This document shows, piece after piece, positions 559 to 39,202 of a stretch of DNA of 64,000 bases; positions within the stretch are counted from its first letter, which is position 1; each line of letters begins with the position of its first letter. A program made the translations under genes and the position numbers. Source of the stretch: Patescibacteria group bacterium (GTDB lineage Bacteria > Patescibacteriota > Microgenomatia > JAMCZE01). The stretch is from assembly GCA_023485845.1 (NCBI GenBank), contig JAMCZE010000007.1, positions 11,391-75,390 on the forward strand, written 5' to 3'. Under the pieces are notes generated by a model. That model did not search any database, was not told the origin of the DNA, and saw only the letters and a program-made list of their open reading frames with translations.

Positions 559-936
559 ATGGACATATTTCCTGGCCTAGACATTCCCATCCTCACTAAA
601 ATTTATAGTTTTTACAGACTTTTATACCAATACCTTCGCTTTTTTCCGAAAAAAGATCGTTACACTTTGGGGCAAAAAATTGACAATCTAACTCTAGAAA
701 TTCTCGAGCTGGCGATTACCGCCGGGACCCAAGACCGAGATCAAAAACTCCCCTATTTAGAAAAGGCCGTTATTTCTGTTGATCTTCTTAAAATTCTTAT
801 CCGCTTAGCAAAAGACACCGGCGCTCTCGACGAAAAAAGATATTTAGAACTTCAAGGTCACCTCCAAGAAATGGGCAGGATGTTTGGGGGGTGGAAAAAA
901 CAAGCTACTATCTCAGAGCGACCGCCTATATTCTGA
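559..936 (+). CDS. avd: Avd-like four-helix-bundle protein (23S rRNA intervening-sequence protein family), DGR accessory variability determinant
   Basis: 125-aa ORF MDIFPGLDIPILTKIYSFYRLLYQYLRFFPKKDRYTLGQKIDNLTLEILELAITAG... shares the FPKxExY-L..QI......NIAEG-type signature with the other four-helix-bundle protein in this window (44649-45002). Its 3' end overlaps the start of the TR. Its ATG directly abuts the divergent RT start codon. Confidence 0.7.
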   Translation: MDIFPGLDIPILTKIYSFYRLLYQYLRFFPKKDRYTLGQKIDNLTLEILELAITAGTQDRDQKLPYLEKAVISVDLLKILIRLAKDTGALDEKRYLELQGHLQEMGRMFGGWKKQATISERPPIF

Positions 937-1213: not shown

Positions 1214-1921
1214 CTATCTCACTCCCTCAGAGCGACCGCCTATATCCTGAAGGACATCCCCGGGCTCCAAATACGAATGGACGTGCAAGCCACCATCCGA
1301 GCCGAAGCAGGCGTAGACAACCTGACCAACATGGCGAGACCCGAGATAACGAGACCAGGTAGGTCCCTCATCGAGATAATGATCTGTCAAGAGTTTACTT
1401 GCCTCGGATGCCAAAACACCAACTTTAAGTCTTGCCCCAACTCTTCCCTCATTGGCAAATCTCTCTTGCAATTGTCTTTCAGTAGTATTTCTGTAAGGAG
1501 CTTCTAACACTATCTCTATGTCGGTCCAACCAGCGGTTTCTCTTTCATCTTTTATAGTGCTGCCTTTAGCTACTGCCCAGCTACTCAAATGGGGGAACTT
1601 TTGCCCTAACTCTGGATAAGTAAAATTAGGTATATAGACTGGTCCTCGTTCCTTTTTAGCAAGACCTCTGAGCTCTGTCAAGCTGTAGGGACATTGAACA
1701 ATATCAGTAGCTGTCAAAAGAGATTGCCAGAAGTCGGTAACTACGTTAGGATTATAAGGCTCACTTTTAAGTGCTTTGACTACATTTTCATGCCGTCTTT
1801 CTGCAAGTGCCTGGGCAGACAATCTTACCGTTCCAAGGTGTGCCTCCATGAGAGTTCTTTCTTGGGCACTCAAATTGGAACGAGACAGTATCTTTTCTCC
1901 TTCTTTTACCCAGTCAATCAT
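1214..1921 (-). CDS. DGR variable (target) protein with the VR at its extreme C-terminus; probable C-type-lectin/FGE-like ligand-binding fold
   Basis: 235-aa ORF. The C-terminal ...VGQVVYACFGSDGGLHVHSYLEPGDVLQDIGGRSEGVR aligns to the TR translation QIVNANFNSNGNLNVNSNLKPEDVNQNIGGRSE. Asn codons of the TR correspond to Y, C, G, D, H, L etc. in this protein. Confidence 0.8.
   Translation of the reverse strand: MIDWVKEGEKILSRSNLSAQERTLMEAHLGTVRLSAQALAERRHENVVKALKSEPYNPNVVTDFWQSLLTATDIVQCPYSLTELRGLAKKERGPVYIPNFTYPELGQKFPHLSSWAVAKGSTIKDERETAGWTDIEIVLEAPYRNTTERQLQERFANEGRVGARLKVGVLASEASKLLTDHYLDEGPTWSRYLGSRHVGQVVYACFGSDGGLHVHSYLEPGDVLQDIGGRSEGVR
1226..1324 (-). repeat. DGR variable repeat (VR) inside the 3' end of the target gene
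   Basis: Counterpart of the TR at 912-1010. It differs only at adenine positions of the coding (minus) strand. The invariant GC-rich segment cagagcgaccgcc at the gene-3' side is identical in TR and VR, which makes it a candidate IMH. Confidence 0.85.
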
Positions 1922-2231: not shown

Positions 2232-2243
2232 TGGGTTACTGAT

Positions 2244-2510
2244 TTATTGTTTTATTGCTTTTATTTGTGTGACTTTCCACATAAATAATCTTGCTTTGCT
2301 CCGGGCGTTGGCGTCAAGGACAAAAGACAGGGCCTGATCTAAAATTTTTCTGTCAATTTCTTTGGCCATCTTAATATAGAGGGGCTTGTGAACCATGTCC
2401 CCCAACCGCTCTGCGAGATAAATCCCATACTTTTGGAATTCACGAGACAAAAACTTGTCCTGGTCGTCTAAATTAATGCGGGAAAGAACGGTCTTTAGCG
2501 ATTGCATCAA
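2244..2510 (-). CDS. hypothetical protein
   Basis: 88-aa ORF between pth and the MGMT-like gene. No recognisable motif. Confidence 0.35.
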   Translation of the reverse strand: MMQSLKTVLSRINLDDQDKFLSREFQKYGIYLAERLGDMVHKPLYIKMAKEIDRKILDQALSFVLDANARSKARLFMWKVTQIKAIKQ

Positions 2511-2964
2511 ACACTCCTTTCAAAGTTTCTAACTCTTCACTGGTAAAATCCTCTAAAACAAACTGCTTTCCGGCTTTCCGGCTTTCGGGCTGACGACTGT
2601 CAACCCCGATTCTTATGCGCCAAAAATCCTTGGTACCCAACTCGTCCTCCACCGAGGCCACACCGTTGTGCACTTTTGGCCCCACCCCGAACTGAATTTT
2701 ATACTGCCCCAGAGGAAGATCCAGGTCATCATGGGCAATATAGAGATCATTTATTGCCCATTGCCCATTGCCCATTGCCCATTTCACGAAGGTCCCCGAG
2801 TCATTCATAAAAACATCTGTCTTAATAATTTTAAACTTTTGATTTAAATTTTGACTTTTGAGTTTTGACTTTTGAGTTGCGTCCACAAACATGTGCCCGA
2901 CATTGTGTCGGTTCCTGCTATATTTTGCACCGGGATTTCCTAAACCAATAATTAGTTTTGCCAT
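2473..2964 (-). CDS. pth: peptidyl-tRNA hydrolase
   Basis: N-terminus LIIGLGNPGAKYSRNRHNVGHMFVD matches the Pth signature LIVGLGNPG..Y..TRHN.G. It also carries in-frame tandem repeats, described in the findings. Confidence 0.85.
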   Translation of the reverse strand: MAKLIIGLGNPGAKYSRNRHNVGHMFVDATQKSKLKSQNLNQKFKIIKTDVFMNDSGTFVKWAMGNGQWAINDLYIAHDDLDLPLGQYKIQFGVGPKVHNGVASVEDELGTKDFWRIRIGVDSRQPESRKAGKQFVLEDFTSEELETLKGVFDAIAKDRSFPH

Positions 2965-3030
2965 TGGCTCATTTTACCACTAAAAGACGGTCCGACGTCA
3001 TGTCGGACCGCCGCTTAGATATAATAGGTC

Positions 3031-3372
3031 TTACTTTGCTGCGACTTTACCCAGCAATTTTTGTGCCCAGGGGCCGATCACCGGCAAAAGCACTTTCTGG
3101 CCCTGGTAGGCTTTAACTGCTAACACAATTTCCAAAATTATGCTGGCCAGCCAAATAACTGGGGTCAGGATCGCCAGAATGATGGTCACACCCATCAAAA
3201 ACATTACGATCCAGATACCAACCATCAGCACTAGACCTTGGGCCGCATTGAACCGAACATCAGCGTTCTTCTCAATGATTAAGAAAATGATCGCTGCAAT
3301 CCAGCCAATAAACGGCACATAGCACAAAGCGGATTCAACTTTCGGATCCAAATTTGATTTCATTATTCTCAC
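3031..3372 (-). CDS. small integral membrane protein (DUF4870-like)
   Basis: 113 aa with 3 hydrophobic helices. Only weak family resemblance. Confidence 0.5.
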   Translation of the reverse strand: MRIMKSNLDPKVESALCYVPFIGWIAAIIFLIIEKNADVRFNAAQGLVLMVGIWIVMFLMGVTIILAILTPVIWLASIILEIVLAVKAYQGQKVLLPVIGPWAQKLLGKVAAK

Positions 3373-3865
3373 CTCATTTCTTCCTCTTATTATTTTTATC
3401 AGTTCTTAAATAAAAAAGATAGAGCAACACAAAAACCGCCAATATCAACGCGAACGTTGTGTTACTGGCCAAAAAGTTCGTTAATGCGTTTGTCGTCATA
3501 ATTCACCACCTTCAGCCTGCAAAACTGATTCCGATAAAATGAGACAAACTAGCCCGGAGATTATCGACCGGGCCGTCACGGTCAACGTCTCTAAAATTGC
3601 CTGATTACTAAAGATAATCGGTGGCACAGCCGCCGTTAGAAAAAATCCTGCTGCTAGGTCAACCAGCAACCCCGAAACAATACTTGGTCGAATAAACACC
3701 ATAACCAGTGTTTCATTTAAGAAGCTTGTTGTCAACACAGTTGATCAATTGACAAGGGGCCAGAAGAGTTATATAAACAAGTCGTATGAAAATTGGTAAT
3801 CGGGAATTCGGGCGGGTTGCTGTTAGGGAAATCTCTTGTTGACTGCTTCGAAAAACTAAGCCGAT

Positions 3866-4123
3866 TTGAGACAGATAGTTCTTACTCCACAAGATAACGA
3901 CGTCACTGTCTTGGCAAATGAGCAACTTGTTGCTCTTCATCAAAAAGATTTTGAGGAAGCCGGTCTCACCTTTTTCCCTAATTGGCGCCAGAGTCCAGAA
4001 TACCGCCAACTGTTGCGCGAAGGCTTACGCCAAAAATTATTGACAGAGAAGACCGAATTGATATTCGCCCTAAAAATCCCCTCTTCAGAACCGCCATCCG
4101 CCCCTAACTTTTTTGCAGCTTAA
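3866..4123 (+). CDS. hypothetical protein
   Basis: 85-aa ORF with protein-like composition. It overlaps a less plausible minus-strand ORF. Confidence 0.3.
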   Translation: MRQIVLTPQDNDVTVLANEQLVALHQKDFEEAGLTFFPNWRQSPEYRQLLREGLRQKLLTEKTELIFALKIPSSEPPSAPNFFAA

Positions 4124-5825
4124 CCATCTCTAAAATTTCCTTCAAGCTAGTCGTGTCTTCTGGATTCTTCTCCCGCCAGCGTTCGAGGCGAGGAAAACGC
4201 AAAGCATAGCCGGCCGTGTGCATCGGTGATTTAGTCAGCTCATCGGCTCGAAACTCCCCCACGATTTGTGGCTCAAGCCACTCATCACAAACCATTAGTT
4301 TATTGACGTCATAATTATTTGGTTTACTTTTGACTTTTAATTTTTGACTTTTAATTTTCAGGTCCCGCCACTCTTTGTCGGTTAACCCCGTTCCTACCTT
4401 ACTAATTGTTTTATATGAGTCAGTTTTTTTGTCATAAACGCCAATTAAAAACGATCCGACGCCAAATTTATTTCTTTTCCCCTGGCCAAAGTCATAGCCC
4501 ATGACCACGGCGTCAATCGTGTCATTTAATTTCTTGGTGTAACTGCCTTTTAGTTTAATCCAGTTCCAGCCCCGGGCCCCGGCTTGGTAAACGCCGTCCA
4601 GTTTCTTCACCATAATTCCTTCTAAATTTTTATTCAGCGCCTGCTGAAAAAGGGCTTCCAGGCGCTCGGCCAACTGCACAACCTCCATTTCGGCGGGAAT
4701 GATAATGGTGTCATGCTGAAATCTTTTCAGCATCTCCTCCACAATTTTTCGGCGGAACCCGTATGGCTTGTTTATTAAACTTTCGCCGTTTAAATAAAGA
4801 CAATCAAACACCACCAGCCGCAGCGGCACGTTGCCGGCAAAAGCCGCCACGTCATATTTCCGTTTGCGCTGGACAGTTTCCTGGAAAGGCAAGTATTTGC
4901 CGGTTTTGGGATCAAAACCAATGGCTTCCCCATCTAAAATCACCTCGTTGGCGGCAATCTCTTTTTTGGCTGCCGCCACTAAGTCAGGGTACATTGCCGT
5001 CACATCCTCGAGCCCGCGACTGAATAACCTAACAAAATCCAAGTTTTTAATAAAGTGCAACTGAGTTCGCAGGCCATCGAGTTTTGGTTCCACCGCGCAT
5101 TTTCCCCCCATTTTTTCCAGAATCTCGGCGGTGGAGGCCAGCCGTTCCGCCCGCATCACTAAAATCGGCGTGCCGACTTTCGGCTCGATTTTAATATTGG
5201 CCCCCCGCTGTTTAACTTCTTGGGCAATCACTCCCAGATCGGGGCGCACATCATAGGCCGCTTCAATATTGTCCTTGTGCTTTTTTGTCCCGTCGATCAT
5301 CCAAGACAACCCTTCCAGCATCGTCATGTCAGAAAAGCCCAGCCGAAGTTTGTCCACCGGAATCCGGGCAATATACCGCGCTGATAGCCCATCACTTCCG
5401 GCCAACAGGTCGGCCAGCAGCCCGATCTTTTTCTCCACCGATCCCTCGCCGCTGGAATCAGCAATCACTGTTAATTTCTCAAAAACTTCGCCAACCTGGA
5501 GGGTTGCACCCTGTTTCAGGGTGCAACCCTTTCGGAGCTCTTGTGCCGTCTCCCCCAGGTCTCCGCTCTTTTTAAACATTTGTGTCACCTTTTCACCGGA
5601 GACGCCATAGGCCTTGGCCAGGGCTCGAATCACCATTCTGTCGGCCATTCCAAACTCGATTGGTTCAAACAGCGGCGCCACCCGGCCCTGAAGAAGATAG
5701 GCAATTTTGTCAATTTCATCCGTCCCTGCCTCGGCAAACAACTGCGCCAAAATCTCGACCATGTTATTTCTCGACGCCGTCGACTCCAATTTGGAAAAAT
5801 ATTCAGCTAGTTTAGAAAAAGTCAT
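4104..5825 (-). CDS. lig: ATP-dependent DNA ligase
   Basis: 573 aa. Adenylation motif I KLDGLR within AVEPKLDGLRTQLHF. Overall archaeal/eukaryal-type ligase architecture with DNA-binding, adenylation and OB domains. Confidence 0.85.
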   Translation of the reverse strand: MTFSKLAEYFSKLESTASRNNMVEILAQLFAEAGTDEIDKIAYLLQGRVAPLFEPIEFGMADRMVIRALAKAYGVSGEKVTQMFKKSGDLGETAQELRKGCTLKQGATLQVGEVFEKLTVIADSSGEGSVEKKIGLLADLLAGSDGLSARYIARIPVDKLRLGFSDMTMLEGLSWMIDGTKKHKDNIEAAYDVRPDLGVIAQEVKQRGANIKIEPKVGTPILVMRAERLASTAEILEKMGGKCAVEPKLDGLRTQLHFIKNLDFVRLFSRGLEDVTAMYPDLVAAAKKEIAANEVILDGEAIGFDPKTGKYLPFQETVQRKRKYDVAAFAGNVPLRLVVFDCLYLNGESLINKPYGFRRKIVEEMLKRFQHDTIIIPAEMEVVQLAERLEALFQQALNKNLEGIMVKKLDGVYQAGARGWNWIKLKGSYTKKLNDTIDAVVMGYDFGQGKRNKFGVGSFLIGVYDKKTDSYKTISKVGTGLTDKEWRDLKIKSQKLKVKSKPNNYDVNKLMVCDEWLEPQIVGEFRADELTKSPMHTAGYALRFPRLERWREKNPEDTTSLKEILEMVKLQKS

Positions 5826-5827
5826 GG

Positions 5828-6874
5828 CTACTTCATCATATACCTCGCCGCTTTGGTTTTGCCCTTTTTCTTAATTATTTTCTTCTCCATCAGATCTTTT
5901 AAGTCGCGAAGAACCGTGTCTTCGGAGACCATCGGTAGGACGTCTTTAAACTCTTGGTTGGAAAGGTAGCCAATTTTTTCAATGTGTTCCACAATTTTCA
6001 CCTGGCGTTGGTTAAGAAAAATTTGTTTGCCCGCCTGGGCTTTCAGTTTTAAATCTAGGGACAGATGTTGGACCTGCTCCCGGACCCGATTAAACTCAAT
6101 TGCTACTCCTTCGACAAAATATTCTAACCATTGGGTGACATCATGATCCGGGTTTTGGTCGGCGGTTTTAATCGCATAATAGTAGGCCCCGACGTTCTTG
6201 TCATAGTATTCTTCTAAGGAAAAGAGTTTTCGAATGTCATAACCCTCGTTTAGAAGAATTAAGGTCGCCATCGCCCGGGAAACCCGGCCATTGCCCTCGG
6301 TGAACGGGTGGATGTTGACAATCGCGTAGTGGGTCACGCCGGCCTTAATAATCGGGTGCAGATCCCGGGTGGAGGGATCATTAATCCAGTCAAAAAAGTC
6401 CTCCATTTGGTAGGACACTTCCACGGCCGGGGGCGGCCGATGGACGATTTCGCCCGTTAAAACATCGCGCAGCACCACCTGCACTTTGCGCCACTTCCCC
6501 ACTTCCTCTTCGGGAATGATCCCCGCCACTGTTAATTTATGAAGCTCTCTTAGGGTGTCCTGATTATAAATATTCTTCTCACCCGACAGCTTCTCTAAAT
6601 AATCCAACACCTTGCGATAATTAACTACTTCTTTAACGTCCCGATCGCGGGCCACAATCTCTTTTCCCTCCATCACTTTCTTCACCTCTTCCAAGTTAAG
6701 TTCGTTGCCCTCGACATGAGTGCCGTAGTGCACCGCCCGCAGTTGGGCATCTTCGACAAACTTTGCTTCCCAGGCCGGTAGGAGCGCCGCCCCCTCAATC
6801 ACTGCTTTGGCCCCTTCCACCAACCCGATATCCTTTAATAACTTTGAGGTGATAGTAAATTTTGGCTGATACAT
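5828..6874 (-). CDS. Fic/DOC family protein (AMPylation-type Fic domain with C-terminal winged helix)
   Basis: Canonical Fic motif HPFTEGNGRVSRA in a 348-aa protein. Confidence 0.8.
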   Translation of the reverse strand: MYQPKFTITSKLLKDIGLVEGAKAVIEGAALLPAWEAKFVEDAQLRAVHYGTHVEGNELNLEEVKKVMEGKEIVARDRDVKEVVNYRKVLDYLEKLSGEKNIYNQDTLRELHKLTVAGIIPEEEVGKWRKVQVVLRDVLTGEIVHRPPPAVEVSYQMEDFFDWINDPSTRDLHPIIKAGVTHYAIVNIHPFTEGNGRVSRAMATLILLNEGYDIRKLFSLEEYYDKNVGAYYYAIKTADQNPDHDVTQWLEYFVEGVAIEFNRVREQVQHLSLDLKLKAQAGKQIFLNQRQVKIVEHIEKIGYLSNQEFKDVLPMVSEDTVLRDLKDLMEKKIIKKKGKTKAARYMMK

Positions 6875-6991
6875 GCTACAATAATTATGCCCTAACGCCC
6901 GTGCGGCGGACGGGCTATCTTTTTGTCATGCTGAACTTGTTTCAGCATCTTGTTGTGAATATTTTACCGCTATTTTCCCGCAAAAGGAAGA

Positions 6992-7507
6992 TTACGATTT
7001 GAGGTTATTAATTATCTGTTCAGAAATTTCTTCGATCCTCTTCTTGGCACTATCGATCCGAAGACTATCGGGGTACGAATTAGCCGCTATCGTATTGATA
7101 AGTTTTTCTATTTCGCCTCTTCGATCAATGTTAATATCACCCCTCACTTCCTCCCTGCGAAGTGCCTCATTCAAGTCAACCGTTAATTCTACGACCAGAA
7201 CTTTTTGCGCCTCCTGCTCACCTATCTGCACCAACTTCGTAATAAATTCGTGCTCTGGGAACATCTCCTCAATAATCACATTATAACCTTGGTGCAACAA
7301 TAATTTAGCTAGGTTTCTAGCCATTTCGTGGCCCAGTGGTCTGACTTCAATCCAATCACTTACTGAATAAGCCTGGGGTAACAAGCAAGCAATCAGGCTA
7401 TCAACTCTAATTCTGGCTACCTTCGCGACTCTCTCAGATATCAAGTTAGAGATAGACGTTTTACCAGAAGATGGCCCGCCACGAAGAATGAGAAGGAACT
7501 GCTTCAT
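6992..7507 (-). CDS. P-loop NTPase / small-molecule kinase-like protein (AAA_33-like)
   Basis: Walker A GGPSSGKTS at the N-terminus. 171 aa, consistent with zeta-toxin or nucleotide-kinase-like folds. Confidence 0.5.
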   Translation of the reverse strand: MKQFLLILRGGPSSGKTSISNLISERVAKVARIRVDSLIACLLPQAYSVSDWIEVRPLGHEMARNLAKLLLHQGYNVIIEEMFPEHEFITKLVQIGEQEAQKVLVVELTVDLNEALRREEVRGDINIDRRGEIEKLINTIAANSYPDSLRIDSAKKRIEEISEQIINNLKS

Positions 7508-7561
7508 GTCATCATTCTACCTAATTTTCCCCGCAACCGCTACGACGTATAATCAAGCAGT

Positions 7562-9400
7562 ATGGCCAAAATTTCCAAACTAAAGCCGCCGCGGATTTCT
7601 TTTTCCGCTGTCGGGCAAATCATTTTTGTTTTCAAGGAGGCCTTTAAGATAATCTGGGCCGTGGAACCAGTGATCCTCCTTGGCGTCATGGTGCTGGGAA
7701 CCATTTGGGGTCTCACTACTCTGCCCACTCTCTATCTGGGCAAAGCCATCATTGACACCTCTTTAGGGGCAATCCCCAAATCCGACCCCGAACGGGTCCA
7801 GGCTGTCTACCAAGTGGCAGTGTTTATTATCCTCCTCACCCTGGTTAACATCATCCGCCAGGTGGCCTCCTCACTAACTAACACTTTCCGTTTTCGCCTC
7901 AATCTCTCAGCCGATGCTTACATGGACCGAACCTTAAGCCAAAAATTCGGCACCCTGGACATCGTCACTATCGAAAGTCCGGAGTTTCGGGATCGATTTG
8001 AAAAAATAAAAAAAGAGGGCTACCAAAGATTATGGGGATTAGTTTATGTTATGGCCCAAGTACCCCAAAACCTGTCCGGGGTTATCTCCTCTTTGGCACC
8101 AATCTTTTTGTTTAGCCCCCTGCTCCTTGTTGTCATCATTATCCTTCAGCTGCCGGTTTTAGCTTATGACCGGGTTATGACTAAAAAGGATTATGACCTC
8201 AACAGTCAGGCCGCCAACAAGAATCGGGTCTGGGGAATGATTCTTCACTTGTTAGTTAGTCCGCGTAACCCGATGGAGGCTAAACTGCTGGGCAACACTA
8301 AAAGTCTCGTTGACAAGATGCACACTCTCCAAGATGAAGTGGTGATGCCGCGAGCTAAGTTGCGAACCAACTGGGTTATTTTCGACAGTATTTTCAGCAT
8401 CCCACCCTGGATTTTTTCCGGGGGGCTGGACATTTGGCTATTTATCCAGGTTATTTTTGCCCGGATGACTTTGGGAACCGCCCAGCTTATTTTTAATGCC
8501 TACAATAATTTCAGTAACTATTTCGTCGATCTGATTGGCAATATCCTTCAGATCTACGAGCACTATCTTTATGTTATTGACTTTGTCTGGCTAATGAACC
8601 TGAAACCGCAAATGTCAAACGGCAAGAAAAAAGTTTCTCTGAAACCCCTGGCCGGGATTGAATTTAAAGATGTCTGGTTTCGCTATCCGGGAAACAACTC
8701 CTGGGTTCTTAAAGGAATAAACTTGAAAATCAGCCCAACCGATAACATCGCTATTGTCGGGGAAAACGGTGCCGGGAAAACCACTCTAATTAAATTGTTG
8801 GGGCGCTTCTATCAACCGACTAAGGGAGAAGTATTGTTTAACGGAGTCAACATCAACAATTATGACGAGGTCTCCTATTGGCGCAATATGGCGGTTTTAT
8901 TTCAGGACTTTGAAACCTATTCGTTTTCGGCTAAGGAAGCGGTGGGCTACGGCGATCCCGCCCGATTAAGTAATTTCTCGGAAATTGTCGATGCTGCCAA
9001 ACAGGCGGGTATCCACGACTACATTGAATCGTTAAAAGCCGGCTATGACACTCCCCTGCAGCGCGACTTGGAAGGTGGCATCACTCCTTCCGGCGGCCAA
9101 CTGCAGCGAATTGCCTTGGCCCGGACAATTTTTCGCCGGGCAAACATCGTCATCCTGGATGAGCCGACCAGCAATGTGGACCCCAAAGCGGAAGAGGAAA
9201 TTTTTGACAAAATTATGGCCTTAACCCGGAAGAAAATTCTTATTTTAATTTCCCACCGCTTCTCCACCGTTCGACTGGCAGATCAGATTATTGTTTTACA
9301 TAAAGGCGAGGTGGTGGAACAAGGCAGTCACGAAGAGTTAATGCGCCTCTCCGGCCACTATGCCAAACTTTATAATCTCCAGGCTAAGTGGTATAAGTAG
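7562..9400 (+). CDS. ABC transporter, fused permease/ATP-binding protein (type I exporter, MsbA-like)
   Basis: N-terminal TM domain. Walker A GENGAGKTTL, signature LSGGQLQRIALAR, Walker B ILDEPTS. Confidence 0.85.
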   Translation: MAKISKLKPPRISFSAVGQIIFVFKEAFKIIWAVEPVILLGVMVLGTIWGLTTLPTLYLGKAIIDTSLGAIPKSDPERVQAVYQVAVFIILLTLVNIIRQVASSLTNTFRFRLNLSADAYMDRTLSQKFGTLDIVTIESPEFRDRFEKIKKEGYQRLWGLVYVMAQVPQNLSGVISSLAPIFLFSPLLLVVIIILQLPVLAYDRVMTKKDYDLNSQAANKNRVWGMILHLLVSPRNPMEAKLLGNTKSLVDKMHTLQDEVVMPRAKLRTNWVIFDSIFSIPPWIFSGGLDIWLFIQVIFARMTLGTAQLIFNAYNNFSNYFVDLIGNILQIYEHYLYVIDFVWLMNLKPQMSNGKKKVSLKPLAGIEFKDVWFRYPGNNSWVLKGINLKISPTDNIAIVGENGAGKTTLIKLLGRFYQPTKGEVLFNGVNINNYDEVSYWRNMAVLFQDFETYSFSAKEAVGYGDPARLSNFSEIVDAAKQAGIHDYIESLKAGYDTPLQRDLEGGITPSGGQLQRIALARTIFRRANIVILDEPTSNVDPKAEEEIFDKIMALTRKKILILISHRFSTVRLADQIIVLHKGEVVEQGSHEELMRLSGHYAKLYNLQAKWYK

Positions 9401-9613
9401 ACCTATATCCTGTCGAACCAAAATTTTGGCGTAATTGGGGATATCTTTGTTCCAGCTGTAGGCGCTGCTGATCATGCATCCGCCGAGCAAAGTCCGGATT
9501 AAGAAATGAAAGAAGACGAATTCTGGCTGAAGAGCGAAATCGCAATTTTCTTTCTTGCCCCGATAACATTAAGATCAGTGTACACCAAGCAAGGTTTGGT
9601 GTAAATTGGCATC

Positions 9614-10321
9614 ATGAAAGTGCTGCTTTATGGCCGGCATGGAAGCTACCCCCAAGAAATAGAAAATCTGGTTAAGTCTTTCGGGCTGGAGATTGTCCGG
9701 AAGAATCCGGAGGTAGTTATCACTTTTGGCGGGGATGGGACATTTTTGGGGGCGGAGCGGGACTGGCCGGAGGTTCCCAAGCTCTATCTGCGCGACAGCG
9801 GCACCTGCTTTCATTGCAGTCCGTTGCCCAACGAAGAACTCTTAAAACTTTTCGTCAACCACAAATTGCCGACTCAAGAGTTTTTAAAACTAGAAGCCAC
9901 CGTCAACGGAAAAGCCGTCACAGCTCTCAACGATGTCGTTATCGCCCACCAAACCCCAAATGGTGCCATCAGATTTACTGTTGACAATGAGCCGGAGTTA
10001 ATCGGTGACGGTGTTGTTATTGCCACCCCCTTTGGCTCCACTGCCTATTTTTATTCCATCACCAAGACCACATTTACTAAAGGGATCGGCCTGGCTTTTA
10101 ATAATGTCCATAATTTGAAAATCCGGGAAAAAATTCTTGCTGAAAACGCCCAGATTTCTGTTGCCATCACCCGTGGCCCGGCCGTTTTATCCGCCGACAA
10201 CAATCCGCAGCTAATTAGTCTGGAAACAGGAGATAAAGTCACCGTTAAGAAGGCAGCCGACACAGCGAAAATCCTGACAAGTGCGACTTTTGCACCAAGT
10301 GAAGGTCAGTGGTTGTCATAA
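9614..10321 (+). CDS. nadK: NAD(+) kinase
   Basis: GGDGT motif and DGVVIATPFGSTAYFYS, matching the NadK DG...TPTGSTAYS motif. Confidence 0.8.
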   Translation: MKVLLYGRHGSYPQEIENLVKSFGLEIVRKNPEVVITFGGDGTFLGAERDWPEVPKLYLRDSGTCFHCSPLPNEELLKLFVNHKLPTQEFLKLEATVNGKAVTALNDVVIAHQTPNGAIRFTVDNEPELIGDGVVIATPFGSTAYFYSITKTTFTKGIGLAFNNVHNLKIREKILAENAQISVAITRGPAVLSADNNPQLISLETGDKVTVKKAADTAKILTSATFAPSEGQWLS

Positions 10322-11237
10322 TGGTTTGCTGTTTAGGAATCACTTCCAAAATGCGGTGGCGGTTAGTCGGGTCTAACTCGGAGAAAATGTCATCCAAAAG
10401 AAGCAATGGTTTTTCATTGGTCGCTTTTTCCACATAATCCAACTCCTTCAGTTTAATGTCAAAGATGGCCAGGCGCTGCTCTCCCCGGCTACCAAAACTC
10501 TTCATGTTCTTACCATTGATAATCACTTTAAAATCATCGCGGTGCGGGCCGACCAGTGTCATGGCTGCAGCCACTTCTTCTGCACGGTACTTTTCCAGCC
10601 GTTCGGCGGAAATGACACTGTGGTCATAAATCAATCCTAAAAAATCGAGAAATACTTTGCGTCTTTGGTGAATGATCCCGCCATTCTCAATAAGCAGCTT
10701 ATCCCAATAGTCAAATTGTGTCCTGGTCACTAGCCTCTGATCCCTAGCCACTCGTAAGAGCCGATTTCGCGCCCGCAGCGCCCGTTCATAGATAGAAGCC
10801 GCCAGGCGGTAGTCCTTGTGCGCTTGGGCCAAAACCAAGTCTAAATACTGGCGCCGGGTGGATGGGGAGTCCGCCACGATTTCAATGTCCTGCGGGGAAA
10901 AAGCCACCACCCGCAGCCAGCCGGCAAAATCCACCAGCCGCTTTCCCACCCCGTTAACCCGATATAGTTTCTGAAATCTCTCCCGTCCGTCCCAAATAAT
11001 TTCCAAAGTTGTGTCATCCAACTCTCCTACTATCCTACTTACTTTCTCTCCCACTCTTGTCTGCTCTCGCTCGTTTTCCGCCCGAAAACTTTTGCCGGTG
11101 GCTAATTCATAAATTGCCTCCAAAACATTGGTTTTGCCCACGGCATTATCTCCAACAATCAGCGTAGTCCCCGGGGAAAATCCAAATTCCCGCTTGGTGT
11201 AATTTCGGAAATTTTGCAACGACAGTTTTTTCAGCAC
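10245..11237 (-). CDS. recF: DNA replication and repair protein RecF
   Basis: N-terminus LKKLSLQNFRNYTKREFGFSPGTTLIVGDNAVGKTNVLEAI is canonical RecF with a Walker A motif. The convergent ORF track overlaps it with nadK by 77 nt. Confidence 0.85.
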   Translation of the reverse strand: MLKKLSLQNFRNYTKREFGFSPGTTLIVGDNAVGKTNVLEAIYELATGKSFRAENEREQTRVGEKVSRIVGELDDTTLEIIWDGRERFQKLYRVNGVGKRLVDFAGWLRVVAFSPQDIEIVADSPSTRRQYLDLVLAQAHKDYRLAASIYERALRARNRLLRVARDQRLVTRTQFDYWDKLLIENGGIIHQRRKVFLDFLGLIYDHSVISAERLEKYRAEEVAAAMTLVGPHRDDFKVIINGKNMKSFGSRGEQRLAIFDIKLKELDYVEKATNEKPLLLLDDIFSELDPTNRHRILEVIPKQQTIMTTTDLHLVQKSHLSGFSLCRLPS

Positions 11238-11500
11238 GTCCCCATTTTACCTGTCCCGGCTTGACAAATAAAGCAGAGAGAGAGAGAATAGGCCAAATGC
11301 ACGAAGGAGAGTTCTCTGACGAGCCAGCTATCTTTTACTGCTCTCATCATGAAGAAAGACCAGCAAGTCGTGACGGTGGCATACACGATTTAGAGGGTCG
11401 CCTTATTGTTATCCAAAATTGTAGGCCATGTTTGGAGGCTCTAGCACTACCCCTTCTTGAAAATATCACTAAGACAATCGCAAATATGAAGGGTGTCTAA

Positions 11501-12355
11501 CTACTTCTGACACTTAGGGCAGAAGAATGTTCCCCGGCCGCCGAGGCGGCTCACAGTAATAGTTTTTCCACAACGGGGACAAGGTTGGCCCTGTTTTTGA
11601 TAGACCACAAAGTGTTCCTGCATATGGCCCTTTTTGCCCTCCACATTCACGAATGCTTCGTCGGCGGCACTGCTGCCGCCATATTTTAGCCCCTTCTCTA
11701 GGACTTCTCTTACACACTTGTGCAACTCTCCCACTTTCCTGCTTTCCAGCTCTCTGGCTCTCTTCATCGGTGAAATTCCCGCGCACCAAAGGGCCTCGTT
11801 GGCATAAATGTTGCCAATCCCGGCGATCTTGCCCTGTTCCATCAAAAGCAGCTTGATCGGCCGGCCCCAATTGGCGCAGATCTTAGCTAAATATTCCGGA
11901 GTAAATTCTTTTCCTAACGCCTCCGGCCCAAATTTTTCATTGCTCATTGCCAATTGCTCATTGCTCATTACGCGGACCCAGCCAAATTGGCGCATATCGT
12001 TGAAAAATAATTTCGCATTGTTGTCCAGGCTGAAGATTACGTGGGTGGTTTTGCCCGGCAGTGTCATCCCGGCAAAGGGAATCCCCTGAGAGAAAGAAAT
12101 TGTTTCGGCGGTGCCATGGCCATAAACTAATTGTCCGGTCATCTTGAGATGAACCACGATATTTTTCCCGTTATCCAATCTCAAAACTATAATCTTAGCT
12201 CTCCTTTGGACATCAGTGATTCTAGAACCTAGAACCTGATCCCTAGAACCTTCCCACATCTTGGCCAGCCGGACGTCAACGTCCACGATCGTCCGGCCGA
12301 TCAATTTGTCGGCCAATTGTGTCCTAATGGTCTCAACTTCTGGTAACTCCGGCAT
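11501..12355 (-). CDS. fpg: formamidopyrimidine-DNA glycosylase (Fpg/Nei family)
   Basis: N-terminal MPELPEVE catalytic motif and C-terminal zinc finger CPRCGKTI...CPKCQ. Confidence 0.85.
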   Translation of the reverse strand: MPELPEVETIRTQLADKLIGRTIVDVDVRLAKMWEGSRDQVLGSRITDVQRRAKIIVLRLDNGKNIVVHLKMTGQLVYGHGTAETISFSQGIPFAGMTLPGKTTHVIFSLDNNAKLFFNDMRQFGWVRVMSNEQLAMSNEKFGPEALGKEFTPEYLAKICANWGRPIKLLLMEQGKIAGIGNIYANEALWCAGISPMKRARELESRKVGELHKCVREVLEKGLKYGGSSAADEAFVNVEGKKGHMQEHFVVYQKQGQPCPRCGKTITVSRLGGRGTFFCPKCQK

Positions 12356-13448
12356 AGACTAGCTCCTTCATCTTTTTAATAAATATTTCTTTTGAGAACT
12401 TAGCCGCCTGTTTTTGACAGTCTGCTTTTTTAATTTTCATCTTCTCCACTCGCTTAATTGCTTCCACCAGGCTTTCAACATTATAGTCGGAAAAGAATGT
12501 TCCCGTCTTGCCTTCCACCACCGTCTCTAGATAGCCCCCGGAGCCGTAGGCCACCACTGGCGTTCCTGCCGCCATCGCTTCCACCGGCGTGATCCCAAAA
12601 TCTTCATCCTTCGCCAAGGCCAGAAAAGCCGTGGCGTTTTTATATAAGCCCGCTAACTGTTCATCCGGCACCCGGCCGAGAAATTCAACATTCTTGTGAG
12701 CCAGCTTTTCAATGTTTTTTTGTTCAGTGAAGATGCCGGAATACTCGCCCACTACCTTGAGACTGGCTCCTAATTTTCCGGTGGCTTCAATTGCCAAATC
12801 GACCCCCTTAAAACTGGCAACGCGCCCGGCCACAAGAAAATAACCACTTTCATAAGACGTGGTCTTGCCTCGCAAGACCACGTCTTGCAAATCTACTGGG
12901 GGATAAATTACCACTGCATCCTTTCGATAGAATTTTTTAATCCTCCTGGCAACTTCATGAGAATTAGCTAAAAACGCATCAACTCGTTGTGCTCCAAACC
13001 AATCATAGAGCCGAAGGAAATGGCTAATTATGACTTTATAAACTTGGGCATACCAATACTTGCGGTAGTCCATCCCCGGATAGCCGTATAAAAACCGCGG
13101 CGGAGTGTGACAATAACAAATTACTCGCACATGTTTGGGAATGCGCACTGGTTTGGTCAGATAGCCGCTGCTGGAAAGAATCACCAAATCATACTTTGAA
13201 AAATCAAAACTCTCCCAGATCAGCGGGACCAGAAAGCGCAGGGAGCTATGAAGATTTTTGTAGCGGATCAACCAGTTGGCCCAAGACGGGATAAGTCGAG
13301 CTCCGGCAAAGGCACGGGCGGCGGTGGAACCCGGCGTCACAAAAGCGGTGTAGATTGGCGCGTCGGGAAATATCTCGTGCAGGGCCATTAAAACCCGCTC
13401 CGCCCCCCCGAACTCTTTAATATAGTCATGAACCAAGGCGATCTTCAT
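12333..13448 (-). CDS. glycosyltransferase family 4 (GT-B fold)
   Basis: C-terminal EDFGITPVEAMAAGTPVVA (E-x7-E region) and overall GT1/GT4 layout. Confidence 0.75.
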   Translation of the reverse strand: MKIALVHDYIKEFGGAERVLMALHEIFPDAPIYTAFVTPGSTAARAFAGARLIPSWANWLIRYKNLHSSLRFLVPLIWESFDFSKYDLVILSSSGYLTKPVRIPKHVRVICYCHTPPRFLYGYPGMDYRKYWYAQVYKVIISHFLRLYDWFGAQRVDAFLANSHEVARRIKKFYRKDAVVIYPPVDLQDVVLRGKTTSYESGYFLVAGRVASFKGVDLAIEATGKLGASLKVVGEYSGIFTEQKNIEKLAHKNVEFLGRVPDEQLAGLYKNATAFLALAKDEDFGITPVEAMAAGTPVVAYGSGGYLETVVEGKTGTFFSDYNVESLVEAIKRVEKMKIKKADCQKQAAKFSKEIFIKKMKELVYAGVTRS

Positions 13449-21068: not shown

Positions 21069-21298
21069 CCACCTTGCCTCATTAAGCCGAATCTGTTAAA
21101 ATATATCCACAACTTAACAACGCGGGGTAGTGTACAGTTGCATGTCAGGCTAGTAGAAGTGGGCCCGTCTCGCAGGAATGCGAGAATGAAAATCCGGCTA
21201 AATCGGTGGACACCCCTGATAATTAGGGACAATACCGAGGGTAATCCGTAGAGACTACAAACCGGAGATCCAGAACGGATCATGATATAGTCCAACCC

Positions 21299-23227
21299 CT
21301 ATCGTAAGATGGGTAGGTGCATAATCTGACGGTCCGGATGCGACCTCCGGCCCCGCAACAAAGTGGGAACGGCGACCAAAAAGTCACCGCTTTTCGTTAT
21401 ATCTAGGCTCCAATCGTTGGATGCGACCATTTTTCCAATCATCGGAGCCGACTTTTTCATCTCCACAATTTTTTCAAAATAGAACGGGGCGTCAAAATTG
21501 ACCGTTTTATCTAAAAGGGTCGGATGCGAACCACACAAGCCCACAAAAATGTCCCGCTTCACCTTCGGGTCGGTGGTATTATTGAACTTCTCCCTGGCTT
21601 CCGCAGCGAAAGTAATCGCCTCAACAGTTTTATTGTTAGCCCGGATCATCCGGTCGTCAATATTCGTCAGTTGACTCTCTATATTTCTTATCTCTTCTTC
21701 CAGGGGAACTTTCCGAGACTTAAACTCTTCATCGTTTAACAAACTGCCGTCACTATTGCCCGGAGATATCTTGAGGGCCACCAGATTATCCAACCGCTTT
21801 CTGGCGTCATCGTAAGCATTCTTAGTGGCTTCTATTGTGCTTTCCCGGAAGCCTTTCTCGTCTTCGTGCATCCGGCGGATCTGTTCAATCGCCCACTCCA
21901 GAAATTTAGGATTGAGTTCAACTTCGGCAAGTCTCCGGTCAATTTGTTTCTCCAGTTGCTTCTCACTAACGCTTAGTTCCTTGCAGGAAGTGTCAGTGTG
22001 CCGGTGGCAACGATGATAAATATAATGGGAAATTCTTGACTGGGGCATTTCGGCAATAAGTAGGCTGCACTGGGGACAGCGATCTGGGTTCTTGCGGGTG
22101 AGCTGGAATTTCTTCCGGCACCGGGAACAAATAACCTGCCATTTGCCATCAATAACTACTCCTGACCCACAATTCCCACATCGCAGGGTGTGGCCATAGG
22201 CATAGTTGTGGCTGGTTGTTTTCTGACTGACATTGCCAAGTTTGACCTGGACTTGATTAAAAACCTCCTCGCTGATGACCCTCTCCAGTCCGGGGTTGTT
22301 GTTGTGCCATTTGCCGCTGTCCACCGGATATTCAAACCGGCCGCAGTAGAACGGATTATTCAAAATCCGGTAAATCTCACTCTCTGAAAGCAAGTGCCCG
22401 CCGATTCGCTTATGCTGACGGGTCATCAAATGCCACTCCTTGCAAGCTGTCCGGTGGATTGCCCGGACGGAGTTGCCGGCCAGAAAAAGTTCAAAGATTT
22501 TTTTAACAAACGGCAGCCGTTCCTGGTCAACATAGATTTTGCGAAAGCCGCTCTCTGTCCTCTTATCATTCAGATAGCCAATTGGTGCCCAGCCCGGCCG
22601 CCAGCCATCCCGACATTTTTTCTCCAATCCCCGTGACACCACAATGCTTTTATCGTCACTGTCCTTTTTAGAGAGAGAAAATTCCAACCCCAGCATAAAT
22701 TTATCCTCCGGCGTGTTGTGGTAGGTTCGTGACGGCGTGACGATTTCCAGCAGTTTGCCGCTGTCCATTAAAAAGATGATGTAGCCGCCGTCCACCGGGT
22801 TGCGGGCCAGCCGGTTAGCGTGCCAGGTGACAATGGCGTTAGCCTCACCGGACTTAATAGCTTCCACCATGCCCTTAAAAGCATCCCGCTGTTCTGGGGT
22901 GTGGGCAGACTTACTTTCCTGAAGAACATCTTTAATCTTTAGGCCCAGTTTATCTTTGAGACCATCAATAATATAAAGCTGGTCAGGCAATGACGCCGCC
23001 TGCCGCTCTTTATTATCTTCGGAGCTTTTCCGGGCGTAACCTATGTATTTGAGAGCAACTTGTGTGTTCATAAATAATGCCCCCACTGGTGTGCTCAAGT
23101 CGGTGAAGACTTGTCCAATGAGGGCATTAAAAATCTCCACCACTTCACTTGAGCACGATTCCATTTTTCTCTCTTTTGCCGTTCTTGTCAATATCCGGGA
23201 GGTTATCGCCATAAACTGCCTTAACAA
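21299..23227 (-). CDS. large serine recombinase (resolvase/invertase catalytic domain + recombinase domain + zinc ribbon + coiled coil)
   Basis: YIGYARKSSEDN catalytic-serine region. Cys-rich zinc ribbon CGNCGSG...CSRCRKKF...CPQC. C-terminal coiled coil. The likely true start is the internal MNTQVALKYIGY. Confidence 0.8.
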   Translation of the reverse strand: MLRQFMAITSRILTRTAKERKMESCSSEVVEIFNALIGQVFTDLSTPVGALFMNTQVALKYIGYARKSSEDNKERQAASLPDQLYIIDGLKDKLGLKIKDVLQESKSAHTPEQRDAFKGMVEAIKSGEANAIVTWHANRLARNPVDGGYIIFLMDSGKLLEIVTPSRTYHNTPEDKFMLGLEFSLSKKDSDDKSIVVSRGLEKKCRDGWRPGWAPIGYLNDKRTESGFRKIYVDQERLPFVKKIFELFLAGNSVRAIHRTACKEWHLMTRQHKRIGGHLLSESEIYRILNNPFYCGRFEYPVDSGKWHNNNPGLERVISEEVFNQVQVKLGNVSQKTTSHNYAYGHTLRCGNCGSGVVIDGKWQVICSRCRKKFQLTRKNPDRCPQCSLLIAEMPQSRISHYIYHRCHRHTDTSCKELSVSEKQLEKQIDRRLAEVELNPKFLEWAIEQIRRMHEDEKGFRESTIEATKNAYDDARKRLDNLVALKISPGNSDGSLLNDEEFKSRKVPLEEEIRNIESQLTNIDDRMIRANNKTVEAITFAAEAREKFNNTTDPKVKRDIFVGLCGSHPTLLDKTVNFDAPFYFEKIVEMKKSAPMIGKMVASNDWSLDITKSGDFLVAVPTLLRGRRSHPDRQIMHLPILR

Positions 23228-32918: not shown

Positions 32919-32990
32919 GGAACCGTAGCTCAACGGTAGAGCAAATGTCTTATACACATTACGTTGGAGGTTCGAATCCTCCCGGTTCCA
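32919..32990 (+). tRNA. tRNA with anticodon TAT (tRNA-Ile, UAU)
   Basis: Acceptor GGAACCG/CGGTTCC. D-arm GCTC-AACGGTA-GAGC. Anticodon stem AATGT/ACATT with loop CTTATAC. T-arm GGAGG-TTCGAAT-CCTCC. Discriminator A. Confidence 0.75.
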
Positions 32991-33590
32991 CTAAACTTCC
33001 ACTTTTATATACCCTCCTTTTTGCAAATAGCCCTGGACGCCTTCACTGACAGCGTATATGTCTTTGCCTTCCAAGCTATATTTTAAAACCATAATCGGGT
33101 CGCCGTGGGAAACAGCAATGACATTGTGGTCTTTATGCTTTTGAGCAATTTCATCTAAAAATGATCTCATCCGCGCTGCCACCTCTTCTGGCTTCTCTCC
33201 TCTTTCCAACTGTTGGGGAAAACGATAAAGACTTTTCTCTCCGCGCATCTTTTCAAACTCGTCCTTATCCATTCCTTGAAATGGAGATTTTAGTTCAATT
33301 AAGCGGTCGTCAACGGTCACCGGCAAGTTTAGTTTCTCCCCGATAATCGCCGCCGACTCCCGACAGCGCTGAACAGGACTGGTGTAGATAGCCGCAATGT
33401 TTTTGGCAGAAAACTGGTCGGCCAGGGTCTCGATTTGCGCCCGACCCACGGCACTTAGGGCAAACCCGGGCAACCACAGGGGGACAATATTTTTGGGGTT
33501 CTCAATTTCTCCGTGGCGGACAAAATAAACAGTGGTCATTCTTAACCGGCTGCTAATTTGAGATCCTCGTTGGCCTTTTCCATCAGCCAC
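32991..33590 (-). CDS. histidine phosphatase family protein (phosphoglycerate mutase-like)
   Basis: VYFVRHGEIENP (RHG motif) and the downstream catalytic His in ...AVSHGD. Confidence 0.8.
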   Translation of the reverse strand: MADGKGQRGSQISSRLRMTTVYFVRHGEIENPKNIVPLWLPGFALSAVGRAQIETLADQFSAKNIAAIYTSPVQRCRESAAIIGEKLNLPVTVDDRLIELKSPFQGMDKDEFEKMRGEKSLYRFPQQLERGEKPEEVAARMRSFLDEIAQKHKDHNVIAVSHGDPIMVLKYSLEGKDIYAVSEGVQGYLQKGGYIKVEV

Positions 33591-38966: not shown

Positions 38967-39202
38967 CCTGTTGCTAGCTTCTTAAGGGCCGGAGCATACT
39001 TCTTCGCTGTTTGATTTAACCAATGATCGAACTCCGAAGAGATTTCCCTCTTACTGGCTTTTGTCGGACGATAGGCAAAACTATGGTCAACCAAATATGG
39101 CTCCACCTTATCGCCCGGTCGGAGAGTGACACTCCTCGCAGCAAGCTGCGAGGCATCTGCATTGCTAAAATAGCCTGAGTTGGTCTTTTGATATTTGGAC
39201 AT
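38963..39202 (-). pseudogene. probable remnant of the Doc-partner antitoxin, N-terminally disrupted by IS200 insertion (chimeric ORF)
   Basis: The first ~27 codons (MSKYQKTNSGYFSNADASQLAARSVT) lie inside the IS copy and are identical to the start of ORF 48221-48475. Only the downstream ~52 codons are unique and directly precede doc. Confidence 0.5.

Follow-up and report, generated by a model that had tools for sequence, protein, structure and literature searches.

The window, by which we mean the whole 64,000-nucleotide stretch analysed here, comes from a Patescibacteria (Microgenomates-group) metagenome-assembled genome (MAG), and several of its conserved housekeeping genes carry tandem arrays of a 7- or 8-nucleotide (nt) unit within the open reading frame (ORF). 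These arrays occupy positions that are present in every homologous protein, and they have replaced existing sequence of equal length. An NCBI protein from a "Patescibacteria group bacterium" MAG matches the Pth protein of the window with 100% identity, and the next relatives, from Microgenomates, Gottesmanbacteria and Roizmanbacteria, share at most 68% identity. The sole other contig with the window's genes (L087) is 100% identical to the window. The pth neighbourhoods of relatives were retrieved for comparison from NCBI, ENA, JGI and Logan and are given L numbers below. The host genes at the beginning of the window are as follows, and a further host encodes a PduO-type cobalamin adenosyltransferase.

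pth, 2473-2964, minus strand
archaeal-type ATP-dependent DNA ligase, 4104-5825, its array and hairpin read on the minus strand
recF, 10245-11237
fpg, 11501-12355
GT4 glycosyltransferase, 12333-13448

The arrays have a period of 7 or 8 nt (14 is a doubled 7), about four copies and a length of 24-36 nt, and 11 of the 13 lie within an ORF or at its end. The exceptions are the two flanks of a 23S_rRNA_IVP-family gene (IVP gene hereafter), which are complementary to each other. Each array is listed with the method that detected it, either Tandem Repeats Finder (TRF) or autocorrelation, and the list ends with two perfect hairpins.

2243-2265, minus strand: small conserved ORF (2244-2510), weak array of period 8/9 at its C-terminal end, sense AGCAATAAA-like; TRF
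2565-2591, minus strand, within an element at 2561-2596: octamer array in pth (slot C), about 3.4 copies, top strand GCTTTCCG, sense CGGAAAGC, encoding QPESRKAGK; TRF and autocorrelation
2753-2783, minus strand: perfect heptamer array in pth (slot A), ATTGCCC on the top strand and AATGGGC in the sense strand, 4.4 copies, encoding KWAMGNGQWAI; TRF, 100% matches
2849-2878, minus strand: heptamer array in pth (slot B), TTTTGAC/TTTTGAG on the top strand and GTCAAAA/CTCAAAA in the sense strand, with a perfect 14-nt super-period on top of period 7, encoding QKSKLKSQN; TRF
4323-4358, minus strand: heptamer array in the ligase gene, TTTTGAC/TTTTAAT on the top strand, AAAGTCA alternating with AAAATTA in the sense strand, encoding KIKSQKLKVKSK; TRF
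11016-11039, minus strand: octamer array in recF, sense AGTAGGAT, three copies; TRF
11734-11763, minus strand: degenerate octamer array in fpg, GGAAAGC family; autocorrelation
11937-11969, minus strand: heptamer array in fpg, TCATTGC on the top strand, 4.7 copies, in the sense strand AATGAGC twice, then AATTGGC, AATGAGC and AATGA, encoding VMSNEQLAMSNE; TRF
12222-12251, minus strand: heptamer array in fpg, CTAGAAC on the top strand and GTTCTAG in the sense strand, 4.3 copies, encoding GSRDQVLGSR; TRF
38163-38187, minus strand: heptamer array in the cobalamin adenosyltransferase gene, CTAGTGA on the top strand and TCACTAG in the sense strand, 3.6 copies, encoding LATSHQSLE; TRF
38403-38435, minus strand: octamer array in the cobalamin adenosyltransferase gene, sense GGAAAGCA/AGTAAGCA, encoding QSRKASKQESKL; TRF
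44614-44648, plus strand: intergenic octamer array GGAAAGYA, directly 3′ of the stop codon of the IVP gene; TRF and autocorrelation
45013-45041, minus strand: octamer array of the same purine-rich family as 44614-44648, inverted, just upstream of the IVP gene; autocorrelation
5500-5530, minus strand: hairpin in a variable linker of the ligase, perfect 14-bp stem, 3-nt loop, each arm a small palindrome, encoding KGCTLKQGATL
12854-12886, minus strand: hairpin in the GT4 gene, perfect 15-bp stem, 3-nt loop, palindromic arms, encoding QDVVLRGKTTSY

An original prediction, made from the DNA letters, had reported six of these sequence features. All six are present by TRF and hairpin search, and the peptides quoted for them agree with the ORF translations. 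The prediction gave periods of 6-14 nt, which we correct to 7, or to 8 in arrays that it had overlooked, with the "14-nt" repeats being two alternating heptamers; the GT4 hairpin, described there with a 12-bp stem, has a perfect stem of 15 bp. The overlooked features comprise the octamer arrays at 2565-2591, 11016-11039, 11734-11763 and 38403-38435, the heptamer array at 38163-38187, the flanks of the IVP gene and the hairpin at 5500-5530.

A strict repeat scan recovers just the perfect array, and TRF on shuffled sequence and autocorrelation were used instead. Against 40 dinucleotide-preserving shuffles of the window, TRF returned seven rows of period 7 (shuffle mean 1.2), seven of period 8 (1.65) and four of period 14 (0.22), while periods 3, 6 and 9, the usual in-frame periods, showed no enrichment over these shuffles. 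The autocorrelation test is model-free, with a region called where at least 17 of 21 positions match at a given lag, and it was compared with 30 Markov simulations. It found five regions at lag 7, five at lag 8 and four at lag 14, compared to approximately none in the simulations, and no region in the window at lags 4-6, 9-13 or 15. Perfect hairpins with a stem of at least 11 bp gave six rows from two loci, against a shuffle mean of 0.35. The 13 ORF-internal elements (11 arrays and 2 hairpins) are concentrated in 7 of about 80 ORFs (P = 4e-4).

The length of each array-bearing protein was compared with solved structures and with 5-26 Microgenomates orthologues per protein. The array-encoded residues fill columns found in every homologue, with a net difference of 0 to +2 amino acids, and the window protein is often the shorter one. 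In slot A of Pth, FVKWAMGNGQWAINDLYIAHDDLDL aligns residue-for-residue with Mycobacterium tuberculosis Pth and with 24-26 Microgenomates orthologues, and residues 41-124, which include this array, align to the M. tuberculosis protein without a gap. Slot C (QPESRKAGK) shows no length change relative to 26 orthologues and is two residues longer than in M. tuberculosis Pth, while preserving the nearly invariant R129 and the invariant G132. Slot B is a loop of variable length, for which the window Pth is among the shorter proteins. For both alignable arrays of Fpg, the window protein is 1-6 residues shorter than the solved Fpg/MutM structures and equal to or shorter than its orthologues. The ligase array adds two residues compared to the ligase of PDB 2hiv and opens no gap against 12 orthologues, and both arrays of the adenosyltransferase align without gaps to PDB 36zl. 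In a confident AlphaFold model of Pth (pLDDT 90.6), all three arrays lie at helix ends and in loops, with slot A covering the C-terminal half of helix 53-67 and the next loop, and slot B covering the end of helix 19-36 and the variable-length loop.

Since the net differences are 0 to +2 amino acids, the arrays took the place of existing sequence of equal length. To judge from these alignments, they have overwritten structurally permissive segments of 10-13 codons in ordinary proteins, rather than having been inserted as the original prediction had it; the residues they encode are not extra. Nor does the repeat itself keep the reading frame, as had also been proposed. A 7-nt unit breaks the frame, and the frame is intact only because the local length is unchanged.

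Selection on the protein is visible within the arrays. Each of ten coding arrays was replaced in silico by its perfect version, which created an in-frame stop codon in four, and in each of the four a deviating copy sits exactly at the position of the stop.

fpg, first array (11937-11969): TGA replaced by TTG
fpg, second array (12222-12251): TTC-TAG replaced by GAT-CAG
adenosyltransferase, 38163-38187: TAG replaced by CAG
recF, third copy: TAG-TAG replaced by GAG-TTG

Further deviations affect hydrophobic positions, for example Leu and Ile in the ligase array and in the array of pth slot B. Across the related loci, the copy numbers of ORF-internal heptamer arrays run from 2.6 to 5.7 and, after a gap, from 7.1 to 7.9, a step of approximately three units or 21 nt. 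The arrays are as periodic as the reading frame and the protein permit.

The phenomenon is common to a subset of Microgenomates genomes, and the same slots are filled in many of them. Locus L021 has 12 period-7 arrays, and L005, L011, L024, L033 and L068 have 6-7 each; among the loci scanned, none was found in L010, L013, L014 and most of the loci from outside the Candidate Phyla Radiation (CPR). The 124-127 heptamer arrays across loci have a median length of 31 nt (interquartile range 27-34). Of 96 period-7 arrays in related loci, 65 lie fully inside ORFs, although the density of arrays per base is about 2.5-fold higher in intergenic DNA. At least 15 of 27 pth orthologues carry a tandem array at the columns of slot A, with constant protein length and differing units. 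The unit is AATGGGC in the window, GATGGGC in L001, CAATGGG in L002, ACAATGG in L021, ATAGCAG in L004, ACTAGTC in L008 and L012, AATTTCA in L011, AATTGAA in L016, ATCTATC in L017 and CTTACTA in L020 and L077, and the array is built of octamers in L025 and nonamers in L005. Slots B and C of pth likewise recur with other units. In the ligase slot, the same columns hold AAAGTCA/AAAATTA in the window, AAGTYAA in L001, ATAGCAG in L004 and AAAGTGC in L077. The fpg slot at 11937-11969 has its counterpart in L021, where AATGGAC twice, AATTGGC and AATGGAC follow each other at the same columns of Fpg proteins that are just 42% identical. In L002, the orthologue of the small ORF 2244-2510 ends in an AATGGGC/AATAAAC array.

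Within a genome, the units of unlinked arrays resemble each other. Counting any rotation and either strand, 72 of 242 same-genome pairs of heptamer arrays (30%) match within one mismatch, compared to 5.4% between genomes. Permutation of the locus labels gave a mean of 14.8 such pairs and a maximum of 31, and random heptamers from the same loci would give 6.3 +/- 2.6. In the window, the AATGRGC family occurs in pth and fpg, the AAAGTCA family in pth and the ligase gene, and the GGAAAGC family in pth, fpg, the adenosyltransferase gene and both flanks of the IVP gene, with recF holding a variant. Slot B of pth and the ligase slot co-vary, both having AAAGTCA in the window and AAAGTGC in L077. Similarly, L004 has ATAGCAG in slot A of pth and in the ligase slot, and L021 has AATGGAC in slot A of pth, in the fpg slot and in the ligase linker. 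The recurrence of motifs in unrelated genes, which the original prediction had pointed out for two motifs, is genuine, and GGAAAGC adds a third family. From this recurrence the prediction had argued for a sequence-specific insertion or expansion process other than random slippage. The 72 pairs against 6.3 expected and the visible selection for frame lend partial support to a sequence-specific process, and insertion is the part that falls away. No convincing shared flanks or fixed array ends were found within a genome for L021 and the window families. Outside arrays, the unit k-mers occur singly at or near the expected frequency, without over-representation, and a drive like that of uptake sequences was rejected on this basis.

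The (AATGGGC)n repeat was also found in at least 120 metagenome stretches of 29-72% G+C, including one Scytonema-like cyanobacterial contig (L109). In this contig, at 2275-2407 and 10440-10560, (ATTGCCC) x19 lies inside a 771-residue ORF and has the unit of the window's pth array; mixed CCAATTC/CCCATTG arrays with a 21-nt super-period are also present. Where two intergenic heptamer arrays are separated by less than 30 nt, one is usually the reverse complement of the other, which gives long hairpins between genes (L005 3039-3114; L011 10523-10592 and 14894-14983; L009 9903-9991; L033 8823-8889; L084 1786-1858). Distant arrays of the same family are mostly co-oriented, with 44 pairs in the same orientation and 9 inverted.

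At the DNA level, array slots are more similar between genomes than the genes around them.

pth, window and L001: nucleotide identity 0.89 in the slot and 0.66 in the rest; third-position identity 0.83 and 0.45
ligase, window and L001: nucleotide identity 0.87 in the slot and 0.68 in the rest; third-position identity 0.85 and 0.46
fpg, window and L021: nucleotide identity 0.75 in the slot and 0.51 in the rest; third-position identity 0.92 and 0.32

The pth arrays of the window (AATGGGC) and L001 (GATGGGC) differ by one base, A or G, in all copies, which is concerted evolution. Over short times the arrays appear stable. The one near-identical pair, L002 and L003 (99.886% over 5.3 kb), differs by six single-nucleotide polymorphisms, none of them in arrays, and by no indel or change in copy number.

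The two hairpins (31 and 33 nt) are intragenic and mutually unrelated in sequence. Their slots are of approximately conserved length in relatives (0 to +2 amino acids), and the orthologous slots are either too diverged or filled with arrays. The slot of the ligase hairpin holds the AATGGAC array in L021 and (GAAGTAC) x7.6 in L033, with 10 additional amino acids, and in L021 the slot of the GT4 hairpin is filled by a heptamer array of unit AATTGCG. Other Microgenomates loci also contain similar perfect palindromes, 29-33 nt long and with arms that are themselves palindromic. In L076, from a WWE3 genome, a 29-30-nt perfect palindrome with palindromic arms, CGGGATACTCCCG-AAT-CGGGAGTATCCCG, is present in three copies in 16 kb (2715-2744, 8469-8497 and 8688-8716) and is a small dispersed repeat family. 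The GT4 orthologue of L007 (1924-2978) aligns as two pieces in different frames, with the break exactly at the hairpin slot of the window, which could be a frameshift, a pseudogene or an assembly error. The window also contains an IS200-like Y1 transposase gene (39165-39638, minus strand; PF01797, E = 5e-34) with small GC-rich hairpins just outside its ends, at about 39134-39153 and 39628-39648. These terminal hairpins differ from the two intragenic ones, and a link between the latter and the IS200-like transposase was rejected. Repetitive extragenic palindromes (REP/REPIN) with a REP-associated tyrosine transposase (RAYT) were also considered and do not describe the hairpins, which are intragenic, unique and unlike those that flank the Y1 gene.

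Small genes of the 23S_rRNA_IVP family, whose products are Avd-like four-helix bundles, are tightly bracketed by inverted heptamer or octamer arrays in the window (44614-45041), at two places in L005 (3393-3846 and 5458-5943) and in L133 (2321-2768). Bracketing arrays were present at four of the five clear IVP genes checked, which lie outside diversity-generating retroelements (DGRs), and in the window, L005 and L133 the unit family of the flanks is also found inside ORFs. Base pairing between the flanking arrays could enclose the ORF in a long stem, similar to that of an rRNA intervening sequence. A search with a hidden Markov model built from five IVPs found an IVP gene beside 1 of the 120 (AATGGGC)n metagenome loci, a count on which IVP genes were rejected as general neighbours of the arrays. 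A DGR lies at 559-1320 of the window (L087 5631-7406), with a bAvd gene (559-936, plus strand) and a reverse transcriptase gene that runs past the start of the window and is seen in L087. Its template repeat is at about 907-1006 and its variable repeat at about 1221-1320, at the 3′ end of an ORF (1214-1921, minus strand). The two repeats are 82% identical and, by eye, differ where the template repeat has adenine. No array has a template copy, and we do not regard them as variable regions of a DGR.

We infer from these comparisons, at a probability of about 0.5, that the heptanucleotide arrays resemble the short tandemly repeated repetitive (STRR) sequences of cyanobacteria and are homogenised by length-neutral, unit-wise copying and exchange between arrays, with selection on the protein as a check. 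Under this proposal, DNA copying that is blind to the reading frame would convert adjacent sequence to the same 7- or 8-nt unit while the length stays constant. In the simplest form, the nascent strand would slip by one unit or switch template, copy and realign. Similar arrays elsewhere in the genome would occasionally be used as template, so that a unit family evolves in concert across loci, and such ectopic templates would produce genome-specific unit families that span loci. Purifying selection on the proteins would restrict arrays to helix ends and loops and reject changes of one or two units in either direction. The perfect hairpins may have arisen where the same template switching took place across an inverted quasi-repeat; we read them as the same process because other genomes have arrays in these slots. 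The host would not have to benefit.

Several points weigh against this proposal. None of the steps of the mechanism was seen, nor was the birth of an array captured among close relatives, the nearest relative of the window Pth being just 68% identical. The preference for 7 nt is not accounted for by copying. Neutral concerted evolution predicts that units drift at the neutral rate, whereas third-position identity is 0.83-0.92 in the arrays and 0.32-0.46 elsewhere. Such excess conservation points to nucleotide selection, biased conversion or a conserved template, none of which is within the simple model. A purely local origin does not predict (AATGGGC)n in a Scytonema-like cyanobacterium and in contigs of 29-72% G+C. 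The clustering of the elements in few ORFs is another such point, for which uneven protein constraint may be the cause.

Because of the excess conservation, the 7-nt preference and the widespread (AATGGGC)n, two other explanations keep some weight, a copy-and-replace element or conserved template and selection on the nucleotides, although we consider both unlikely. In the former case, arrays and hairpins of about 30 nt would be tiny mobile repeats comparable to the small dispersed repeats (SDRs) reported in Nostoc, and they would overwrite equal-length targets from master copies. A dedicated enzyme or template might take part, for example a Y1 transposase, or a reverse transcriptase that works with an Avd-like partner. 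This would suit the genome-specific unit families dispersed over unrelated genes, the uniform size of arrays (median 31 nt) and hairpins (31 and 33 nt), the conservation of arrays between genomes above neutral expectation and the same unit in distant phyla. The array-bracketed IVP (Avd-like) genes with families that also fill coding slots, the DGR and IS200-like Y1 transposase in the window and the three copies of the palindromic-armed hairpin in L076 are also in its favour. However, the arrays lack fixed ends and shared flanks, the two window hairpins are unrelated in sequence and the Y1-terminal hairpins are unlike them, nearly all of the 120 (AATGGGC)n loci have no neighbouring IVP gene, and the vicinity of the DGR yielded no template repeat for the arrays. 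The deviations exactly at would-be stops are hard to obtain by pasting a ready-made element into an essential gene, and these stop-avoiding copies therefore favour unit-by-unit conversion filtered by selection over whole-element pasting. Selection on the DNA or RNA itself would instead keep the arrays as functional motifs, for example as sites for a protein of the cold-shock or IVP type that reads heptamers, as elements of regulation or RNA structure, or as tags for self-recognition. The third-position identities speak for such a role, as do the recurrence of particular units and the intergenic arrays, which are often inverted pairs that can fold into long hairpins and that bracket IVP genes, and a regulatory role of contiguous heptamers has been suggested in Nostoc and Beggiatoaceae (bioRxiv 10.1101/2022.06.06.494920; PMC4679880). 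It is difficult to reconcile with units that are not over-represented singly outside arrays, with several unrelated unit families per genome and with orthologous slots that hold quite different units, or none in L010, L013 and L014, and it is not easy to imagine a role for which four copies must lie within helices of Pth, Fpg and ligase.

The remaining explanations are much less probable. In-frame insertion or expansion, the model of the original prediction, would have slippage add three units (21 nt, 7 amino acids) to an existing copy and selection retain the in-frame outcomes. Arrays of about 4.4 copies can be written as 1.4 + 3, ORF-internal arrays with 7.1-7.9 copies occur and the ligase linker array of L033 is a genuine expansion by 10 amino acids, but every alignable window array differs by 0 to +2 amino acids from distant solved structures and from array-free orthologues, and we judge this model very improbable for the window. 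We give still less credence to phase-variable contingency loci, in which slippage of non-triplet repeats by one unit toggles a gene. The units are indeed not multiples of three and lie inside ORFs, yet the hosts are housekeeping or essential genes (pth, ligase, fpg, recF) and not dispensable surface, restriction-modification or virulence genes, the tracts are short (about four copies) and all in frame, and the 99.886% identical contigs L002 and L003 show no difference in array copy number. Chance, compositional bias or assembly artefact is close to negligible as an explanation. Single short arrays near the TRF score threshold can be chance products; the excess as a whole is confined to certain periods and missing from shuffles, arrays recur at the same protein columns in independent assemblies (NCBI, ENA, JGI, Logan), and the ORFs that bear them remain intact.

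A broader idea, which we put forward tentatively and consider doubtful at present, is that a trans-acting, length-neutral overwrite operates in some Microgenomates and perhaps in heterocystous cyanobacteria. Either templated micro-conversion or a copy-and-replace element of about 30 nt, possibly tied to the array-bracketed cassettes of Avd-like IVP genes, would paint a genome-specific heptamer family into permissive slots. If true, this would be selfish DNA that replaces rather than inserts, and it would account for the origin of STRR repeats.

Whatever their origin, the arrays are within conserved housekeeping proteins, and thus orthologue alignments reveal what each array replaced. They display the changes that selection rejected, namely stops, changes at conserved residues and copy-number shifts other than three units, and they show within-genome co-variation of units between unlinked slots. 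As array-rich genomes occur beside array-free genomes in one group, comparative genomics could pinpoint a responsible gene or repair defect. The annotation and alignment of CPR proteins are also affected, in that apparent lineage-specific motifs such as WAMGNGQWA are by-products of DNA-level repeats.

The window has other features as well. The region of the host genes also codes for a Fic protein, a P-loop kinase, an ABC transporter, NAD kinase and a stand-alone 5′-3′ exonuclease. The 64-kb window has two Fic/DOC-family genes (5828-6874 and 38577-38966), the second of which abuts the adenosyltransferase gene with its two arrays. ARAGORN predicts a tRNA-Ile with anticodon TAT at 32919-32991 (plus strand), an uncommon bacterial way of reading AUA. 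A group I intron match from Rfam (52.2 bits, gathering score 50) lies at 21142-21314 (plus strand) and extends over the beginning of the gene for a large serine recombinase of 642 amino acids, which is encoded on the opposite strand (21299-23227, minus strand). No RNA gene that carries an array was found in the Rfam and tRNA scans.

The closest known counterpart is the cyanobacterial STRR sequences, heptanucleotide repeats reportedly described by Mazel in 1990 and known since then. Like them, the window arrays consist of tandem 7-nt units in several lineage-specific families that are dispersed at many loci per genome, with inverted pairs between genes. The likeness extends to the units, with ATTGCCC/AATGGGC arrayed in the Scytonema-like contig and the TTTTGAA reported for Nostoc resembling the TTTTGAC of the window. 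STRR and contiguous heptamer repeats of Calothrix and Nostoc are described as mostly intergenic or upstream of genes and as being of unknown function and origin (PMC4692102; bioRxiv 10.1101/2022.06.06.494920). In contrast, the window arrays are mostly intragenic and located in housekeeping ORFs (11 of 13 in the window and 65 of 96 in related loci), and they are short (about four copies), length-neutral and placed in conserved protein slots. Their host also differs, being a member of the Patescibacteria/Microgenomates and not a heterocyst-forming cyanobacterium.

The SDRs of Nostoc punctiforme, attributed to Elhai and colleagues in 2008, are said to be dispersed repeats of about 21-27 nt, some of them inverted repeats, that are associated with heptamers, tolerated inside genes and conserved in sequence within a family. 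The window arrays share units, not ends or flanks, and the window hairpins are unique sequences. SDRs and the window arrays may be related. Quasipalindrome or misaligned-repeat template-switch mutagenesis, studied by Ripley and by the Lovett laboratory, alters several bases from a template with no change in length and so makes an inverted or direct repeat perfect, and it is known as a rare event at single loci in E. coli and phage T4. This is the type of outcome seen in the window arrays, and to our knowledge template switching has not been described as acting throughout a genome and shaping large numbers of genes in a whole lineage. The DNA uptake sequences (DUS) and uptake signal sequences (USS) of Neisseria and Haemophilus are lineage-specific short motifs that are abundant as single copies. 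They share with the arrays an accumulation within genes, at permissive protein positions and with constant length, and they differ in that the window units are not over-represented outside arrays and that several unrelated families coexist.

As summarised in two later papers, a survey of prokaryotic genomes found heptanucleotides to be the most abundant class of long simple-sequence repeats in most of the genomes surveyed, with polymerase slippage proposed as the cause (Mrazek et al., 2007, via PMC4679880 and PMC4692102). In the summary given by one of them, unit lengths that are multiples of three are the ones tolerated in coding regions (Mrazek et al., 2007, via PMC4679880). The favoured unit length of 7 is common to that survey and the window; the difference is that in the window periods 7 and 8 occur in coding DNA, and periods 3, 6 and 9 are not enriched. 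In the literature searched, we found no description of such arrays for CPR bacteria, although one may still exist, and nothing relevant that links heptamer repeats to IVP proteins. The arrays described here are distinct from the known heptamer repeats in the phylum of their host, in their mostly intragenic location in housekeeping genes and in their short, length-neutral and slot-bound form.

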